Positions 1-4,503 of a DNA stretch of 4,503 bases are shown here, one piece after another; the first letter of the stretch is position 1; every line of letters starts with the position of its first letter. The notes under the pieces are model-generated. The model had not been told where the DNA came from. It made no database searches and saw nothing but the letters and a program-made list of their open reading frames with translations. A program made the translations under genes and the position numbers. Source of the stretch: a virus (lineage: Duplodnaviria; Heunggongvirae; Uroviricota; Caudoviricetes); IMG/VR virus record IMGVR_UViG_2698536435_000005; one strand, 5' to 3'.

Positions 1-25
1 GGGAAAAATATCATCAGATGGCTGC

Positions 26-379
26 TTAAAAAAAGAACAAATGGTAGTGTCCGCTATTGCCAGTACACCTCAATTGCTCTGCGGCTTCGCTCAGAGCTGG
101 CGTATGTTCCCGGCCTACTGATTCACACAGGTAATCAACGAAACCGGACACCAGTTTTCGTTCGCGAGGCGTGATCGCCCCACCGACCGGAGTCCAGTAA
201 TCGAAACCCAGTTGCAGGAGTTTGAAAAAACGCTTGTGGAATGCGTAGTTACACACACGCTTAAAGTCTGCGTGTATCCACTCACCTATTTTGATTTGAT
301 GCAGAAAATCGCAACTCTCCGGCGTCGCCGGGAGAAGTAATCCGGAAGAGGTTTGTTTGACCAGTTGTATATGTGCCAT
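26..379 (-). CDS. hypothetical protein (117 aa from ATG at 379; the track ORF extends to a TTG at 421). Second gene of a two-gene cassette, Cys/His-rich, no family recognised
   Basis: Open frame ending at TAA 26-28. The ATG at 377-379 is preceded by GGAG with a 7-nt spacer (minus strand CCGGAGAAAGCCG-ATG). The alternative TTG at 421 overlaps the upstream stop as TTGA but has no comparable SD. Start choice is uncertain. Confidence 0.5.
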   Translation of the reverse strand: MAHIQLVKQTSSGLLLPATPESCDFLHQIKIGEWIHADFKRVCNYAFHKRFFKLLQLGFDYWTPVGGAITPRERKLVSGFVDYLCESVGREHTPALSEAAEQLRCTGNSGHYHLFFF

Positions 380-417
380 CGGCTTTCTCCGGTGGCACGG
401 TGTTACACAGCAGGAGT

Positions 418-705
418 TCAATCCTGCTCAAGATTGTAGATGAGTTTATTCTTCAGCAAAAGCAGAAAACCAGCCTTAAAACCAATCTCTTTCAAAACCC
501 GTAATGATGTGACAAATTCGTCCTCACGCAAAATAAAACCGTCCGTCAGAAGTCCATTACAAAAATAAAATAACACAGCACCGCTCTTCCTTTGTTGAGA
601 TTGCAAACATCTAATGCGGCAATGGCTGACAATCGCTCCATTCTCAACGCGCACAGCATAGAGGCCATTTTCACTAAAAATTTCACGCAATTCTTCGATT
701 TTCAT
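418..705 (-). CDS. hypothetical protein (95 aa), first gene of the two-gene cassette downstream of hok
   Basis: ATG at 703-705 preceded by GGAAGGA with a ~8-nt spacer; TGA stop at 418-420 overlaps the next start region. Sits downstream of a sigma70-like promoter at 787-814. No family recognised from sequence. Confidence 0.55.
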   Translation of the reverse strand: MKIEELREIFSENGLYAVRVENGAIVSHCRIRCLQSQQRKSGAVLFYFCNGLLTDGFILREDEFVTSLRVLKEIGFKAGFLLLLKNKLIYNLEQD

Positions 706-786
706 CTTCAGAATCCTTCCAGATAAATAGCTCTCCCCTGTTCGGGGTCCATCCCTCTTCTCCCTGCGCGCTACTTAAGTGAGTCG

Positions 787-814
787 ATTCTATCTGCGAA
801 GGTGCGCGAATCAA
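787..814 (-). promoter_or_regulatory. sigma70-like promoter for the downstream two-gene cassette (-35 TTGATT, 16-nt spacer, -10 TAGAAT)
   Basis: Minus-strand TTGATT (revcomp of + 809-814) and TAGAAT (revcomp of + 787-792), just past the hok terminator and ~80 nt upstream of the ATG at 705. Uses the same two hexamers as the hok promoter. Confidence 0.4.
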
Positions 815-825
815 ATTCACCGGAA

Positions 826-877
826 ATAAACAACAAAAAACCCGCCGAAACGCTGAGAGATCACAGCGATGGGCGGG
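826..877 (-). terminator. rho-independent terminator at the 3' end of the hok transcript
   Basis: Minus-strand RNA CCCGCC-CAU-CGCUG-UGAUCUCU-CAGCG-UUUC-GGCGGG (nested GC-rich stems, + 841-877) followed directly by UUUUUUGUUGUUUAUUU (+ 826-840). Confidence 0.6.
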
Positions 878-881
878 TTAA

Positions 882-946
882 GTGCGGGTGCGTTGAGGAT
901 GCCTGACACATCAGAGGTGGGCGGGGATGGGATCAGCTCCCCGCCC
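882..946 (-). promoter_or_regulatory. hok mRNA 3' fold-back region: stem-loop plus an fbi-like element complementary to the mRNA 5' end
   Basis: Perfect 9-bp stem GGGCGGGGA / TCCCCGCCC with a 10-nt loop (919-946), 9 nt after the hok stop. Plus-strand 886-898 GGGTGCGTTGAGG matches the minus-strand leader start GGGTGCTTGAGGC (+ 1268-1280) apart from one extra base, so the mRNA 3' region can pair with its own 5' end as in the fbi/tac arrangement of plasmid R1 hok mRNA. Confidence 0.45.
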
Positions 947-954
947 GGTCACTC

Positions 955-1110
955 TTACTTCCTGGATTCGTAGTCTACGAAGACAGCGACCTCCGTCTGG
1001 CCGGTTCGGATTCGTACCTCACAGAGGTCTTTCCTCGTTACCAGTGCCGTCACTATGACGGTTAAACAGATGACGATCAGGGCGATTAACATCGCCTTTT
1101 GCTGCTTCAT
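955..1110 (-). CDS. hokD: Hok/Gef-family type I toxin (51 aa): MKQQKAMLIALIVICLTVIVTALVTRKDLCEVRIRTGQTEVAVFVDYESRK
   Basis: From memory, near-identical over the first ~45 residues to E. coli HokD (RelF) and Gef (HokC), with a single TM helix and the conserved RKDLCE motif. ATG at 1108-1110 is preceded by AAGGAG with a 9-nt spacer; TAA at 955-957. The frame is open in-frame upstream to an ATG at 1167 (70-aa track ORF), which I read as a mok-like frame fused in-frame to hok. Confidence 0.85.
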   Translation of the reverse strand: MKQQKAMLIALIVICLTVIVTALVTRKDLCEVRIRTGQTEVAVFVDYESRK

Positions 1111-1114
1111 AGCC

Positions 1115-1200
1115 TGCTTCTCCTTGCCTTTCGGCATGTAAGAGGCTAACCTACATGTGCAAAGCATGAAATTGGCCTCAGATTAATGTTAAGCGTCTTG
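1115..1200 (+). ncRNA. candidate Sok-like antisense RNA region (approximate coordinates, not resolved)
   Basis: Inference only. In hok/sok loci Sok is transcribed antisense across the mok start region; here the mok-like ATG (1167) and its GAGG SD lie ~114 nt into the predicted hok mRNA. I could not pin a convincing plus-strand -35/-10 pair or terminator. Confidence 0.25.
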
Positions 1201-1286
1201 CCGGACGCGTAATGTTAACTGGGGCTTTTCTCTATCTGCCTTTTGGTGTTCATGCCTGAAGCAGATAGCCTCAAGCACCCGCAGTC

Positions 1287-1316
1287 ATTCTACTTACCTC
1301 GCCAATATGAAATCAA
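1287..1316 (-). promoter_or_regulatory. hok promoter (-35 TTGATT, 18-nt spacer, -10 TAGAAT)
   Basis: Minus-strand TTGATT (revcomp of + 1311-1316) and TAGAAT (revcomp of + 1287-1292), ~7 nt upstream of GGGTGCTTGAGGCTATCTGC. That leader start resembles, from memory, the 5' end of R1 hok mRNA (GGCGCUUGAGGCUUUCUGCC). Lies 22 nt downstream of the QueH-like stop. Confidence 0.5.
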
Positions 1317-1337
1317 TCAGAAAGGTGCCCCATAAAA

Positions 1338-2024
1338 TCACTCCTTCTCTTCTTTACCGTAGTGGAGTTGACCAATTTTGATAAGAGGGCGTCCCTGAGA
1401 TTTGCGGTGTAGATTGGTATCGCGCAGAGAATACACACAGCCACAATATTCCTGCTGATAGAATTTTTCGCGCTTGCTGATTTCAATCATACGGGACGAG
1501 CCGCCCTGCTTGCGCCAGTTATAATCCCAGTACACCATGCCCGGATAATGCGCGACGGCTCGCCGCCCACAGTCGTTAACCTGCTGCATATTTTTCCAGC
1601 GTGAAATGCCCAGTGAACTGCTGATCACACTGAAACCATTTTCAGCGGCGTACAGCGCTGTCCGCTCAAAACGCATGTCAAAACACATGGTGCAACGGAT
1701 CCCTCGTTCGGGCTCCCATTCCATTCCTTTGGCTCGTTCAAACCAGTTGTCTGTGTCGTAATCAGCATCAATAAACGGCACGCCGTGTTGTTCAGCAAAG
1801 CGAATATTCTCATCCTTACGAATTAAATACTCTTTCTGAGGATGAATGTTCGGGTTGTAGAAAAAGATGGTGTAGTCGATTCCCGAGGCCTGAAGCGCCT
1901 CCATCACCTCACCGGAACATGGAGCACAGCAAGAGTGCAGTAGTAGTTTGTTTGCCCCGTTTGGGAGCTCCAATTTGGGCCGTTTGAAATCAGCAACTGT
2001 CATAAATATGTTTATTGGGGTCAT
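1338..2024 (-). CDS. queH: QueH-like protein (DUF208, putative epoxyqueuosine reductase family), 228 aa, Cys-rich
   Basis: N-terminal [11 protein letters not shown] motif, which I recall as the DUF208/QueH signature, plus further Cys pairs (RCTMCF, YCGCV). TGA stop at 1338-1340. Neither the first ATG (2024) nor the in-frame ATG eight codons later has a recognisable SD, so the start is uncertain. Family call is from motif recall, not alignment. Confidence 0.6.
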
Positions 2025-2171
2025 AAAAATATCAAAGAGTGTAGCATTAGAACGGGGCTATCGGAAACAGATGTGTGACTGCTCCCCGCCCTTTCGGGTG
2101 GTCTCCTGATGATTTGAGGGTGCAGAAATCCCTCCGGTTAAGGATTAAATTTTTAACAGTGCTAAATTTAA

Positions 2172-2585
2172 TTATTCAGTTCTGGATTTTGTCGCCCTGC
2201 GTATCCGCGCTTTCGCGTTACGCTCAATCTGTATCAGCTTTTCTATATTTCTCCGCCTTTCCTGTTCCTCCTGGCGCAATAGCCTTACATCATCTGCCAG
2301 TCTGGTTTCTCTTTTTGCCACAGAGAGCATCCAGTCAAACGGCTCCACAACCGCACCGCAGATTTTACAGCGGACCTGACGCTCTTTTTCGTCAACCCGT
2401 ACAGAGGCGTGATGGCAATATGGTCTTTCCGATGGCTCATAAAGAAAATTAACCTGATTACGAGGGTTATCCTCTTTTACCGGAAATAAAACAATATTGC
2501 TTAACTCATCTTCTGGTTTTATTTCCATGCTCCTCTCCTTTGATGCGAATGCCAGCGGTAATTGAAGCCTGATAGCTAATTTCAT
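2172..2585 (-). CDS. hypothetical small protein with a putative Zn-ribbon (C-H-H...C-x-x-C) and a basic, coiled-coil-like C-terminus; alternative start at 2528 gives 119 aa
   Basis: The ATG at 2583-2585 abuts the upstream TGA (TGAATG). The in-frame ATG at 2526-2528 has a stronger RBS (AAGGAG, 6-nt spacer). Motif PYCHHASVRVDEKERQVRCKICG; C-terminus rich in R/K/E/Q. Confidence 0.55.
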   Translation of the reverse strand: MKLAIRLQLPLAFASKERSMEIKPEDELSNIVLFPVKEDNPRNQVNFLYEPSERPYCHHASVRVDEKERQVRCKICGAVVEPFDWMLSVAKRETRLADDVRLLRQEEQERRRNIEKLIQIERNAKARIRRATKSRTE

Positions 2586-3008
2586 TCACAGTATCGCCTC
2601 CTGAAAATTACCCTGATAGAAAGCCAGTACACGCTGCATAGCTTCGCTCTTCCGGCACTCGCGACAGATTATATTCAGGCGCCTGTCGTAGCGGCGTATT
2701 TCTCCGTCAGGTAATGACCAGATAAGGTCCGGATCAACAACAACCGGTTTCCTCACCTTTACTCTCGAGAGTTTTTTGCGGGCGCTTTGCCAGTCCTTGC
2801 GAGCCTGTTCAGACGGGAATAAGCCGTAGCCAGAATTATATACATCACCACTTGCGACCAGTTCTATGCATAAGCGACCGACAGACGCACGACTGATACC
2901 TGTTTCATCTGACAACTGCCGAATCGTGACCCGACCGTCCTGATGCACGAGTTCCACAATTCGCGTCTTCAGTTCTTCCCGCTGTTCGGGAGTAAAAGGT
3001 TTCGCCAT
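2586..3008 (-). CDS. ren: HTH protein, probably Ren-like (lambda ren family), 140 aa
   Basis: Sits immediately after the P-equivalent gene, as ren does in lambda. The C-terminal motif CRECRKSEAMQRVLAFY resembles what I recall of lambda Ren (KECRQSAAMKRVLAVY), and the N-terminus has a helix-turn-helix-like segment (TIRQLSDETGISRASVGRL). AGGAGG 4 nt upstream of the ATG at 3008. Confidence 0.6.
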   Translation of the reverse strand: MAKPFTPEQREELKTRIVELVHQDGRVTIRQLSDETGISRASVGRLCIELVASGDVYNSGYGLFPSEQARKDWQSARKKLSRVKVRKPVVVDPDLIWSLPDGEIRRYDRRLNIICRECRKSEAMQRVLAFYQGNFQEAIL

Positions 3009-3022
3009 AAATCCTCCTGAAA

Positions 3023-3769
3023 CTACTTAACAACCCTCGAATGGCTAACATTCGGACGCCAGCTCTCCCAGTTAAAATTCACCCAGCGCCCGCCGTTCAT
3101 GACCATGCGATCCATCACCCGCTCGCCGAGCAATGTTTTCATCACCTCATAGTTCAGGTTTGTCAGCATCCCCACGCTGCGCATCGACGCTGTCCGGCGA
3201 TCAACAATCTGGTGCAGCACCACCTGCTCGTTTTTCGTCTCGCGCTGAATGCCAATTTCATCAAGAACCAGCAGATCCACTTCGCACAGCTCCCGCAAAA
3301 ATTTTTCGCCTGACTGCCCGTCGTCATAGCTGGCGTGCAGGGCGCTCATAACATCAGCCACGGTAACCACAATCACTGTCTGACCGTCTTTCAGCAGGCG
3401 ATTCCCGATAGCTGCCGCTAAGTGATTCTTCCCGGTACCAGGTTTTCCGCTGAACGCAAAATTTGTACACCCGGTCATCAGTTCATCGGCGATGGATTTC
3501 GCCTGGCTTAACGCGTATCGCTGGCCGTCGTTCTGCACCTGGTAATTCGCAAACGAGCATTTACGGTGCAACGGCTGGATGCCTGAGCGATTCAGAATTT
3601 TTTCCACCCGCAACTGGCGATTCAGGCGGTTGATCTCCTCGCTACGTTTCTGGCCTTCAGCAAGTTGCCACTCGCGCCACTCCGCTACCGTTCTGAATGG
3701 GGCGGTTACATGTGGCGGGGTCAGTCGGCGGATGCGTTCCAGAACGCCGCCTGTCGCAATATTTTTCAT
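3023..3769 (-). CDS. dnaC: DnaC-family AAA+ helicase loader (phage P-equivalent replication protein), 248 aa
   Basis: Clear similarity to E. coli DnaC along the whole length, from memory: Walker A FSGKPGTGKNHLAAAIG, Walker B DLLVLDEIG, and RSGIQPLH...CSFANY and MLTNLNYEVM...LGERVMDRM blocks. ATG at 3767-3769 follows the upstream TAA (3776-3778) by two codons. Confidence 0.9.
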   Translation of the reverse strand: MKNIATGGVLERIRRLTPPHVTAPFRTVAEWREWQLAEGQKRSEEINRLNRQLRVEKILNRSGIQPLHRKCSFANYQVQNDGQRYALSQAKSIADELMTGCTNFAFSGKPGTGKNHLAAAIGNRLLKDGQTVIVVTVADVMSALHASYDDGQSGEKFLRELCEVDLLVLDEIGIQRETKNEQVVLHQIVDRRTASMRSVGMLTNLNYEVMKTLLGERVMDRMVMNGGRWVNFNWESWRPNVSHSRVVK

Positions 3770-4123
3770 GGTCCGTTACCCCCTGAAGCCTGGCGGGATC
3801 GCACTGTCCGGCAACGAGACGGTGTTAACCTGTCGGAGCAACGTCTCAGGCCGAACACCTTTCGGCGCGAACAGGCCCTGGTATTCATTGGCGATGCTGT
3901 GTCGAATCACCTGCTCAGGTGTAAAACCCTGCTGACGGAATTTTTCCAGTTCCCGTATCGCCCCGTTAGCGCCCTGCTCCGTTCGAATCGGTTTTCGCAA
4001 TGCCTGTCTGAACCGGACCCACTCATGCCAGAGTGTTTCCGGCAACCAATCGGGCAGCTCAATAGCCTCCGGCTCGAATTTTTTAGACGCTCGTTTTTGG
4101 CGAGGGGGAGATCAGTATTTAGA

Positions 4124-4174
4124 TCTTCCTCTTCCTCTTCCTCTTCCTCTTCCTCTTCCTCTTCCTCTTCCTCT
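4124..4174. repeat. perfect hexanucleotide tandem repeat (TCTTCC)8 + TCT on plus, (GAAGAG)n on minus; encodes Glu16 in minus frame B
   Basis: Read directly: 8.5 identical units with no interruptions, 51 bp. Confidence 0.95.
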
Positions 4175-4198
4175 GGTAACGCTTTTTGATCCGTTTGT

Positions 4199-4217
4199 GT
4201 AACGCTGGCAGCGTTAC
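4199..4217. repeat. perfect 19-bp palindrome GTAACGCTG-G-CAGCGTTAC (dyad GTAACGC-N5-GCGTTAC), with an extra direct half-site GTAACGC at 4176-4182
   Basis: Read directly. Lies inside the initiator gene just upstream (minus sense) of the hexamer repeat. Candidate protein-binding site (iteron or operator). Confidence 0.5.
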
Positions 4218-4406
4218 CTTTTCGTTTCAGTTCGCGTATTTTTGTTACTCGCTCGTTTGTAACCGCCCGTTTTTTTTAGAGCTTTTTCCGTTATGACGTT
4301 CAAAGTTAGGTAGAGAAAGCCCTCCGTCATTTTCGACCAGCCATCCAACCTGAATTAACGCATCAGCAAAACCAGACATAAAAGTGATGCGATCTATTGC
4401 ACTTTT

Positions 4407-4427
4407 TGTAACGCCGCGAGCGTTACA
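4407..4427. repeat. second copy of the same dyad: TGTAACGC-CGCGA-GCGTTACA
   Basis: Read directly. Shares the GTAACGC-N5-GCGTTAC half-sites and spacing with the 4199-4217 palindrome, ~210 bp away, inside the initiator N-terminal coding segment. Confidence 0.5.
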
Positions 4428-4503
4428 ATCTGCATTACCGTCTGGATTTGCCCCTATATTTCCAGACATCTGTTATCACTTAACCCATTACAAGCCCGCT
4501 GCC

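Follow-up and report, generated by a model that had tools for sequence, protein, structure and literature searches.

Genes and Features of the Locus

Comparison at the sequence level confirms that the minus strand at positions 826-1316 carries a complete hok/mok/sok type I toxin-antitoxin locus. Positions are those of the window, the whole stretch of 4,503 nucleotides of caudoviral DNA that was analysed (IMG/VR record IMGVR_UViG_2698536435_000005). The promoter, leader, mok frame, Hok coding sequence, 3' stem-loop, 5'-complementary element and terminator are all present (Table 1), in agreement with the preliminary description, which had proposed a hok/sok-type locus with this set of elements. 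The Hok protein matches the Pfam family HOK_GEF (PF01848) with E=9.8e-23 and 79.9 bits, against a cut-off of 22, along the entire profile (positions 1-42 of 42). A Hok-family subfamily model of NCBIfam also matches (E=5.5e-15), with a score of 55 bits that lies under its curated cut-off of 73. The leader was said to resemble the 5' end of the R1 hok mRNA, and this is borne out by a full-length match to Rfam RF01794 on the minus strand between 1280 and 1105 (model positions 1-157 of 157; 117 bits, gathering score 59; E=3.9e-27). The match is on the hok-sense strand, and therefore the model, although named "sok," here describes the hok leader.

Table 1. Position, strand and basis of the features assigned to the hok/mok/sok locus.
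Feature	Position	Strand	Basis
hok/mok promoter: -35 TTGATT (1316-1311), 18-nt spacer, -10 TAGAAT (1292-1287)	1287..1316	-	promoter scan
predicted full-length hok mRNA, ~449 nt	832..1280	-	5' end: RF01794 start and R1 homology; 3' end: terminator U-run
tac, mRNA 5' end GGGUGCUUGAGG, pairs with fbi in full-length RNA	1269..1280	-	MFE
ucb / anti-SD box AGCCCC, pairs with mok SD region	1221..1226	-	full-length MFE; R1 model (PMC9841398)
mok SD GAGG, 8 nt before mok ATG	1176..1179	-	sequence; invariant in all alignments
mok frame, 70 codons and stop; stop codon common to hok	955..1167	-	ORF list, frame calculation
hok SD region AAGGAGAAG	1116..1124	-	identical in 933W
hok toxin CDS, 51 aa, MKQQKAMLIALIVICLTVIVTALVTRKDLCEVRIRTGQTEVAVFVDYESRK	955..1110	-	Pfam HOK_GEF and homology
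3' stem-loop, 9 bp, GGGCGGGGA / UCCCCGCCC, just past hok stop codon	919..946	-	MFE helix
fbi (fold-back inhibition) CCUCAACGCACCC	886..898	-	MFE, relatives
intrinsic terminator: stem AACCCGCC/GGCGGGUU (879-872 / 846-839) and U6 run	832..879	-	MFE
predicted Sok promoter: -35 TTGCCT (1124-1129), 17-nt spacer, -10 TAACCT (1147-1152)	1124..1152	+	homology
predicted Sok antisense RNA, 71 nt	1159..1229	+	transferred from annotated sokW of 933W via alignment

The locus very probably represents an intact module of the hokD/hokW lineage, carried by a lambdoid prophage remnant, in whose early-right region it lies between queH and a DUF1367 gene. The closest characterized relative is the mokW-hokW-sokW locus of the Stx2 phages 933W and Sp5 (AF125520; Takada et al. 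2021, PMC8621323), with which it shares 92% DNA identity. A chance resemblance, in which a short hydrophobic ORF is flanked by fortuitous signals and no toxin-antitoxin system exists, has nothing but the small size of the ORF in its favor. It is refuted by the Rfam and Pfam E-values, by the identity to this annotated and tested locus and by the fold of the predicted mRNA (MFE -191.5 kcal/mol, z=-9.41, equalled by 0 of 100 shuffles), which leave it a negligible probability.

Transcript Ends and mRNA Folding

The hok/mok promoter agrees with the consensus at 9 of 12 positions in the promoter scan. Its -10 hexamer, placed 7 nt upstream of the start of the RF01794 match, is conserved in the aligned loci of 933W, FORC064, GB089 and 689R5. 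At the other end of the transcript, a generic terminator scan of 760-1400 called no terminator, because the loop of the one present is long and interrupted; it was recovered through folding and alignment to the compact terminator of relatives (AACCCGC-TTCG-GCGGGTTTTT). Relative to hokD, the loop contains an insertion of ~23 nt (~848-871) that forms a mini-hairpin in the MFE fold (868-864 / 855-851), and the 3' tail past fbi measures 51 nt with this insertion, compared with 27. Exact matches to the inserted variant are found in 27 IMG/VR contigs, and among the GTDB species-representative genomes there are none. Between the hok stop codon and fbi, a hairpin is retained in relatives at the site of the 3' stem-loop, with differing sequence (e.g., CGAGGGA/TCCCTCG in GB089). 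In R1 the last stem-loop of the truncated mRNA guards against exonucleases (PMC9841398), and the stem-loop at 946-919 is likely to protect the 3' end of the processed mRNA in the same manner.

In the full-length MFE fold, fbi is complementary to nucleotides 1-12 of the mRNA, forming 12 bp with one bulged C. The same end-pairing is independently predicted for six relatives (933W, FORC064, GB089, pRHB38, 689R5 and the R1-like locus). The tac sequence is invariant in seven aligned relatives, and the only fbi position that varies is the bulged base (C to U in pRHB38). Across the aligned relatives, pairing is kept in 91.6% of pair cells, compared with 34-41% in slid-partner controls; both sides have changed in 11 pairs, and in 2-5 pairs of these controls. 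Within the close clade all 12 pairs of the tac/fbi helix are invariant, so covariation there is uninformative; covariation support comes only from the comparison with the R1-like locus, where both partners are changed and compensate each other (GGCGCUU / AAGCGCC).

The AGCCCC box is likewise invariant between this locus and the R1-like one, and the full-length MFE fold pairs its region with that of the mok SD through two helices (1225-1223/1177-1175 and 1221-1219/1181-1179). In R1 the tac/fbi, ucb and 3' stem-loop elements have the support of mutagenesis (PMC9841398). For the 3'-truncated mRNA, the MFE structure is a local 5' hairpin, compared with which a forced R1-type tac/ucb fold is 5.9 kcal/mol worse; the tac/ucb refolding of the processed RNA is thus suggested by homology and not by structure prediction.

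The Predicted Antisense RNA

The annotated genes sokW and sokC, by homology, place a predicted Sok RNA on the plus strand. The preliminary description had looked for it on this strand at about 1115-1200; the strand stands, but the extent has to be revised, the predicted promoter alone occupying the first part of that interval and the RNA reaching beyond its end (Table 1). The predicted Sok folds with -28.6 kcal/mol (z=-4.71) and consists of a single-stranded 5' tail of 15 nt over the mok start codon, a long hairpin and a terminal UUUU. It overlaps the start of mok by 9 nt, as sokC does with the first 9 nt of mokC in K-12. The promoter hexamers are the same as in 933W, with one difference in the spacer. 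The Sok promoter was missed by a generic promoter scan, its hexamers being too weak and the -10 TAACCT a poor match to the consensus. A promoter-less sokW construct is described for the phage locus, and the oligonucleotide table of the same paper lists a mutagenic primer, YO-421, that alters the Sok promoter motif (PMC8621323). We infer that primer and construct belong together, the use of the primer being absent from the text of that paper.

The mok Frame

The upstream frame begins at the ATG at 1167-1165, which corresponds to nucleotide 114 of the modeled mRNA, exactly where the preliminary description had set it, behind the GAGG SD. The homologous GAGG of R1 mok is needed according to mutagenesis (PMC9841398). 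By frame calculation the mok ATG precedes that of hok by 57 nt and is in the same frame, giving an ORF of 70 aa, as had been read from the sequence. In the R1/R100-type sequence the offset is 58 nt and mok is out of frame, as the preliminary description had stated; 2654 plasmid records carry this sequence at ≥99% identity, the 100% matches including NC_002134.1.

The implication that an in-frame mok is unusual, by contrast, does not hold. GenBank annotates both mokW/hokW and K-12 mokC/hokC with a common stop codon, the 933W record listing mokW (213 nt, 70 codons as here) and hokW (156 nt) with a single stop for both. The 57-nt in-frame spacing occurs in six further loci, namely those of 933W, FORC064, GB089, 689R5, K-12 hokC and one IncFII hok. 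The 58-nt out-of-frame offset is found in hokD-like loci of IncHI1B plasmids (~86% identical) as well as in the R1/R100 type, in both cases with the DNA motifs unchanged. The frame relation is thus not fixed within the family: the offset changes between 57 and 58 nt even among close relatives. Neither PMC9841398 nor the hokW paper (PMC8621323) says explicitly that mok is in frame, so the evidence for this arrangement consists of database annotations and our own frame calculations. Since an in-frame upstream frame is the usual arrangement in the hokD/hokW branch, the locus is ordinary: its kind is already known, and its identification is correct without being novel.

Could the 70-aa, N-terminally extended Hok nevertheless be the main product, with properties of its own, and the locus a distinct variant? 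All 70 codons are open and preceded by a good SD, the in-frame layout is kept in the six loci named above, and a semi-conserved core, RLASY.PKGKEK, can be recognized in the 19-aa extension. However, the residues that appear conserved fall on the Sok promoter and hok SD, where the constraint is at the DNA level, while the frame itself is labile, as the 58-nt loci demonstrate. Hok synthesis in R1 depends on mok being translated as far as the hok start, and the Mok product is irrelevant (PMC9841398), an established view with which the flipping of the frame agrees. This reading is quite improbable, and even if true it would not be specific to the window, because the arrangement is already annotated in 933W and K-12. 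A novel fused toxin was considered and is rejected on these grounds. Mok was explicitly excluded from the analysis in a recent survey (bioRxiv 10.1101/2025.08.07.668861).

The 57/58-nt switch might also be functionally meaningful and not neutral, for which we see a very slight chance. In-frame loci would then make a 70-aa Mok-Hok with a basic N-terminal extension beside the 51-aa Hok, and this isoform would alter toxicity, membrane insertion or timing. With the same slight chance, and separately from the frame, the insertion in the terminator could slow down 3' processing, the "timer" for activation of the mRNA.

Relationship to Known hok Loci

Hok of this locus differs from HokW at one of 51 residues (R50 here, E50 in HokW). 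The tac, fbi, anti-SD, mok SD and hok SD sequences, the hexamers of the Sok promoter and the Sok hairpin are all identical in 933W, and both loci reside on lambdoid (pro)phages. Differences concern the -35 region of the hok promoter, the loop of the 3' stem-loop, which differs by an extra 5 nt, and the sequence directly past fbi, where 933W diverges and lacks the terminator found here. The genomic position is also different, the 933W locus being near attR. Several bases differ in the region of the Sok 5' tail and mok start (GCAAAGCAUGAAAUUGG here, GUUCAGCAUGGAUUGAG in 933W), and for this reason recognition between the two systems may be imperfect.

The Hok proteins of this locus and of E. coli hokD (relF) are identical through residue 44 and then diverge (C-terminal VDYESRK here, TAYEPEE in HokD). 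The hokD locus has the same fbi and homologous terminator stems, and a similar position between the replication region and a Q-like antiterminator of a lambdoid prophage. In the hokD locus of FORC064 the full leader, the in-frame mok and the sok region are all present. By contrast, K-12 hokD (Qin prophage) retains ~17 nt upstream of the hok ATG, relBE replacing the leader, the mok start and sok.

Alignment to the R1/R100-type, hokC and hokD loci, as the preliminary description had suggested, extends these correspondences. The R1/R100 type has the same order of elements (tac, AGCCCC, GAGG, mok ATG, a Sok promoter inside mok, AAGGAGAAG, hok, 3' stem-loop, fbi and terminator), and the codon of the C-terminal Tyr lies in an invariant TACGAA motif. 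The R1 Hok protein is only distantly similar (44% identity between HokW and R1 Hok; PMC8621323), and R1 hok/sok is plasmid-borne whereas the present locus lies on a prophage. The Sok target hairpin of the present locus is ~16 nt longer than in the Rfam consensus. The leader of the K-12 mokC-hokC(gef)-sokC locus aligns throughout, except that the Sok hairpin extension of ~18 nt is missing. K-12 hokC is chromosomal and lies outside a prophage, unlike the locus described here. The aligned 3' region of K-12 hokC is IS sequence, as IS186A is annotated with its end ~20 nt 3' of the hokC stop codon.

Proposed Mechanism and Activity

By homology to R1 hok/sok and hokW-sokW, the following mechanism can be proposed. 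The hok/mok promoter would give rise to a stable mRNA of ~450 nt, in which tac is paired to fbi and the mok SD is sequestered by AGCCCC, so that the full-length RNA would be neither translated nor bound by Sok. Slow trimming of the 3' end to the stem-loop would remove fbi, upon which the 5' region would refold and expose the translation start of mok. Ribosomes starting from the mok ATG would then traverse the hok SD and start codon, enabling Hok synthesis; with mok in frame, the 70-aa extended Hok would be made as well. As long as the unstable Sok is supplied, it would pair with the mok SD and start region, blocking translation and leading to cleavage by RNase III. Once the supply ends, because the element is lost or the prophage induced, Hok would be made and the inner membrane depolarized.

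The phage counterpart has been studied experimentally: hokW-sokW is a functional type I system in which HokW is toxic and is neutralized by sokW in an RNase III- and Hfq-dependent manner, and HokW appears upon prophage induction and roughly doubles phage release (PMC8621323). The present locus may instead be a structurally intact relic that is silent, being transcribed little or not at all or not activatable, as reported for several chromosomal hok loci. Earlier tests of chromosomal hokA, hokB and hokC revealed no post-segregational killing (summarized in bioRxiv 10.1101/2025.08.07.668861). The locus lies within an IS-bounded prophage fragment, and disruption is seen in related loci: an IS of ~921 bp sits right behind the mok ATG in two close relatives (L019 and L015), a 14-nt duplication is present in the leader of two others (L036 and L024), IS421 removes fbi in pEC20, and K-12 hokD has been truncated as described above. 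Against this, all cis elements of the present locus are intact and match the experimentally functional hokW-sokW. The 491-nt locus is moreover identical in 11 independent IMG/VR prophage contigs and one base off in seven more, which is not a pattern of decay. We consider a silent relic unlikely, and favor the intact module.

An intact prophage-borne hok/sok could aid retention of the prophage fragment, lysis on induction, or phage exclusion, none of which would be new in kind. With IS600 and IS2 at the borders of the prophage segment, a lysis-assisting role may no longer apply.

Distribution and Annotation

The locus is flanked by replication genes and queH on one side and by the DUF1367 gene on the other. 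It is 100% identical to chromosomal sequence of E. coli FDAARGOS_943/944, where it is named hokD by PGAP. Beyond correct annotation the locus matters little. The automatic annotation of the identical E. coli sequence contains the 51-aa hokD CDS and omits mok, Sok and the mRNA elements, so that the coordinates in Table 1 complete the picture.

Organization of the hok/mok Locus

All elements of a hok/mok/sok type I toxin-antitoxin module are located between positions 826 and 1316, with those of hok and mok on the minus strand (see table). A preliminary description made from the sequence had listed the hok and mok elements and read the stretch as a complete hok/sok-type locus; each of them was found, and the reading is supported. 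The locus is already known, both through annotation and through a close homologue characterized experimentally. The Rfam family RF01794 matches in full length from position 1280, 7 bases 3' of the promoter (117 bits vs. a gathering score of 59; E=3.9e-27). The match runs in the hok sense as far as the hok ATG; the family, despite its name "sok," describes the hok mRNA leader here. The mok ATG (1167) is nucleotide 114 of the mRNA, where it had been placed before, and the 51-aa Hok product matches Pfam HOK_GEF across the whole profile (E=9.8e-23).

Features of the hok locus and its surroundings
Feature	Position	Strand	Basis or remark
hok promoter-like site, TTGATT-18-TAGAAT	1316-1287	minus	promoter scan
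mok SD, GAGG	1179-1176	minus	
hok ATG	1110	minus	
Stop codon common to mok and hok	957-955	minus	
3' stem-loop, 9-bp	946-919	minus	MFE fold
Terminator hairpin, then U6	879-839	minus	MFE fold
Predicted Sok promoter, 17-nt spacer	TTGCCT (1124-1129), TAACCT (1147-1152)	plus	homology
Predicted Sok RNA	1159-1229	plus	sokW/sokC coordinates transferred via alignment
IS600 end (IS3 family)	1-72		
DUF1367 gene, truncated	26-421	minus	131 aa
95-aa ORF, unannotated function	418-705	minus	
QueH (epoxyqueuosine reductase) gene	1338-2024	minus	Pfam E=1.9e-65
Zinc-ribbon ORF	2172-2585	minus	
DUF977 gene	2586-3008	minus	
DnaC/IstB-like ATPase	3023-3769	minus	
O/YdaU-like replication gene		minus	
IS2 end	4443-4503		

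Relationship to Known Systems

Two E. coli chromosomes contain the 491-nt locus at 100% identity; all that PGAP annotates there is the 51-aa CDS, named hokD. Of 5426 complete E. coli genomes, 4713 have a related locus, and the median number of places in a genome is two. The mokW/hokW/sokW loci of 933W, Sp5 and other Stx phages are 92% identical to the window locus, and HokW differs from the window Hok by one residue. hokW-sokW is a functional type I system, in which toxic HokW is neutralized by sokW with the help of RNase III and Hfq; upon mitomycin C treatment sokW is lost and inner-membrane HokW builds up, with about two-fold higher phage release than from a deletion mutant (PMC8621323). In K-12 hokD (Qin prophage), relBE has taken the place of the leader, the mok start and sok, and no more than ~17 nt remain 5' of the hok ATG; the window locus is a complete version of this truncated K-12 locus. 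An E. coli-type hok locus (91.7% identity) is also present in PP818812.1, "Actinobacillus phage vB_Apl-pPE4," assigned to Actinobacillus pleuropneumoniae; this is unexpected in such a host, and a mis-assigned host or contamination may be the cause.

The mok Reading Frame

Frame calculation confirms that mok is in frame with hok (57-nt spacing, 70-codon frame). R1 mok is out of frame, as the preliminary description had stated: the R1/R100-type spacing is 58 nt. At least 99% identity to this sequence is seen in 2654 plasmid records, NC_002134.1 being among the 100% matches. The 57-nt in-frame spacing is shared by 933W, FORC064, GB089, phage 689R5, K-12 hokC and one IncFII hok locus, and the 933W record and the K-12 reference annotate mokW with hokW and mokC with hokC, respectively, with one common stop codon. 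On this comparison, an in-frame mok is neither rare nor new, and is what this branch of the hok family normally shows. The hokD-like loci of the IncHI1B plasmids pRHB38-C01_2 and pEC20-4B-2-1, which share ~86% identity with the window, are longer by one base between the two starts (58 nt), so that their mok, of 68 codons, is out of frame. Within a closely related clade, the frame relation thus flips between these plasmids and the prophage and chromosomal relatives. This fits the experimental conclusion from R1, where mok translation is needed up to the hok start, and the Mok product and translation beyond are irrelevant (PMC9841398). In the 19-aa extension, the partly conserved residues coincide with the Sok promoter and hok SD sequences, both of them constrained at the DNA level.

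At the other end of the protein, the C-terminal Tyr codon (Hok Tyr47) lies in a TACGAA sequence (967-972, minus strand) that is invariant from the window locus to R1-like hok. UACG is the TadA A-to-I editing motif. TadA Tyr-to-Cys recoding is reported in a preprint for hokB, and a comparable effect for hokC, hokD and hokE (bioRxiv 10.1101/2025.08.07.668861). No tRNA-like local fold is evident around the Tyr47 codon in the MFE structure.

Folding of the hok mRNA

The predicted mRNA (1280 to 832) has an MFE of -191.5 kcal/mol (z=-9.41 vs. dinucleotide shuffles). In this fold, nucleotides 1-12 (tac, 1280-1269) pair with 886-898 (fbi, one bulged C), and the mok SD with the AGCCCC box upstream of it (ucb, 1226-1221). 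In each of six relatives folded independently, among them the R1-like locus, the 5' end is joined to a 3' element that immediately precedes the terminator. The partners are GGCGCUU and AAGCGCC in the R1-like locus, and GGGUGCUUGAGG and CCUCAA(C)GCACCC in the window. When the window MFE structure is placed on seven aligned relatives, 91.6% of cells are paired vs. 34-41% with slid partners, and both members differ in 11 pairs (2-5 in slid controls). This comparison is limited by the derivation of the structure from one of the aligned sequences and by the invariance of the tac/fbi helix itself within the aligned clade. Folding of truncated RNA does not reproduce the tac/ucb refolding: the MFE is a local 5' hairpin, and a forced tac/ucb fold lies 5.9 kcal/mol above it. 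Refolding upon 3' trimming is thus proposed by homology with R1.

The loop of the 3' stem-loop is longer than in the nearest relatives, and the terminator loop carries a ~23-nt insertion (~848-871, minus strand) with its own CGCTG/CAGCG mini-hairpin; with this insertion the tail 3' of fbi is 51 instead of 27 nt long. By contrast, FORC064, GB089 and K-12 hokD display a compact AACCCGC-TTCG-GCGGGTTTTT terminator with a GNRA-like TTCG loop and no such insertion. The exact variant is present in 27 IMG/VR prophage contigs, 11 of them identical over all 491 nt and 7 one base apart, and has no match among GTDB species-representative genomes.

The Sok RNA and Activity of the Locus

Sok had been suspected around 1115-1200 on the plus strand, which is near but shifted; homology retains the strand and gives 1159-1229. 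The 933W record gives sokW as an antisense RNA of 71 nt, with a 9-nt overlap between its 5' end and the beginning of mokW; sokC and mokC overlap by the same 9 nt in the K-12 annotation. The predicted Sok RNA opens with a single-stranded 5' tail of 15 nt, which is complementary to the mok start codon, and continues with a long hairpin and UUUU (-28.6 kcal/mol, z=-4.71). Compared with the nearest relatives, this tail/mok start region is the leader's most variable stretch, and its divergence could limit cross-talk among the several hok loci of a genome. Both promoter hexamers are identical in 933W. A promoter-less sokW construct is described, and the oligonucleotide table includes a mutagenic primer, YO-421, that alters the TAACCT -10 motif (PMC8621323); we infer that the primer, whose use is absent from the text of that paper, belongs to this construct.

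The Sok -10 is weak by consensus, which calls for caution about activity. Earlier reports of no post-segregational killing by chromosomal hokA, hokB and hokC (summarized in bioRxiv 10.1101/2025.08.07.668861) point the same way, as do visibly decayed relatives: an IS of ~921 bp with a two-ORF transposase is inserted directly after the mok ATG in L019 (8664-9584) and L015, the 5' leader of L036/L024 contains GGCTATCTGCTTCA, a tandem duplication of 14 nt, and IS421 just 3' of hok has removed fbi in pEC20. A locus that looks intact but is silent is nevertheless improbable here. None of the cis elements is disrupted, and many contigs share the conserved sequence, which argues for a functional module. 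The window very probably contains an intact hokW/hokD-type locus working by the R1/hokW mechanism.

Prophage Setting

The sizeable genes of the window, all encoded on the minus strand, make up the early-right region of a lambdoid prophage. The E. coli FDAARGOS_943 chromosome, which carries the identical locus, shows the same gene order, flanked by cI/Cro-like regulators at one end and by holin and lysozyme genes at the other. Both window ends are IS ends, so the prophage segment (73-4442) is IS-bounded; they truncate the DUF1367 gene (600 nt in FDAARGOS_943) and the O/YdaU-like replication gene. The QueH gene directly upstream of the hok promoter is a tRNA-modification gene on a phage. Within the replication-initiator-like gene, a perfect (TCTTCC) repeat of 8.5 copies (4124-4174) encodes a poly-Glu run on the minus strand; alignments to two relatives (L020 and L038) are interrupted at 4144-4154, a sign that the copy number may vary. 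Directly 3' of the hok terminator and upstream of the 95-aa ORF, a second promoter-like site (TTGATT-16-TAGAAT; 787-814, minus strand) has the same hexamers as the hok promoter.
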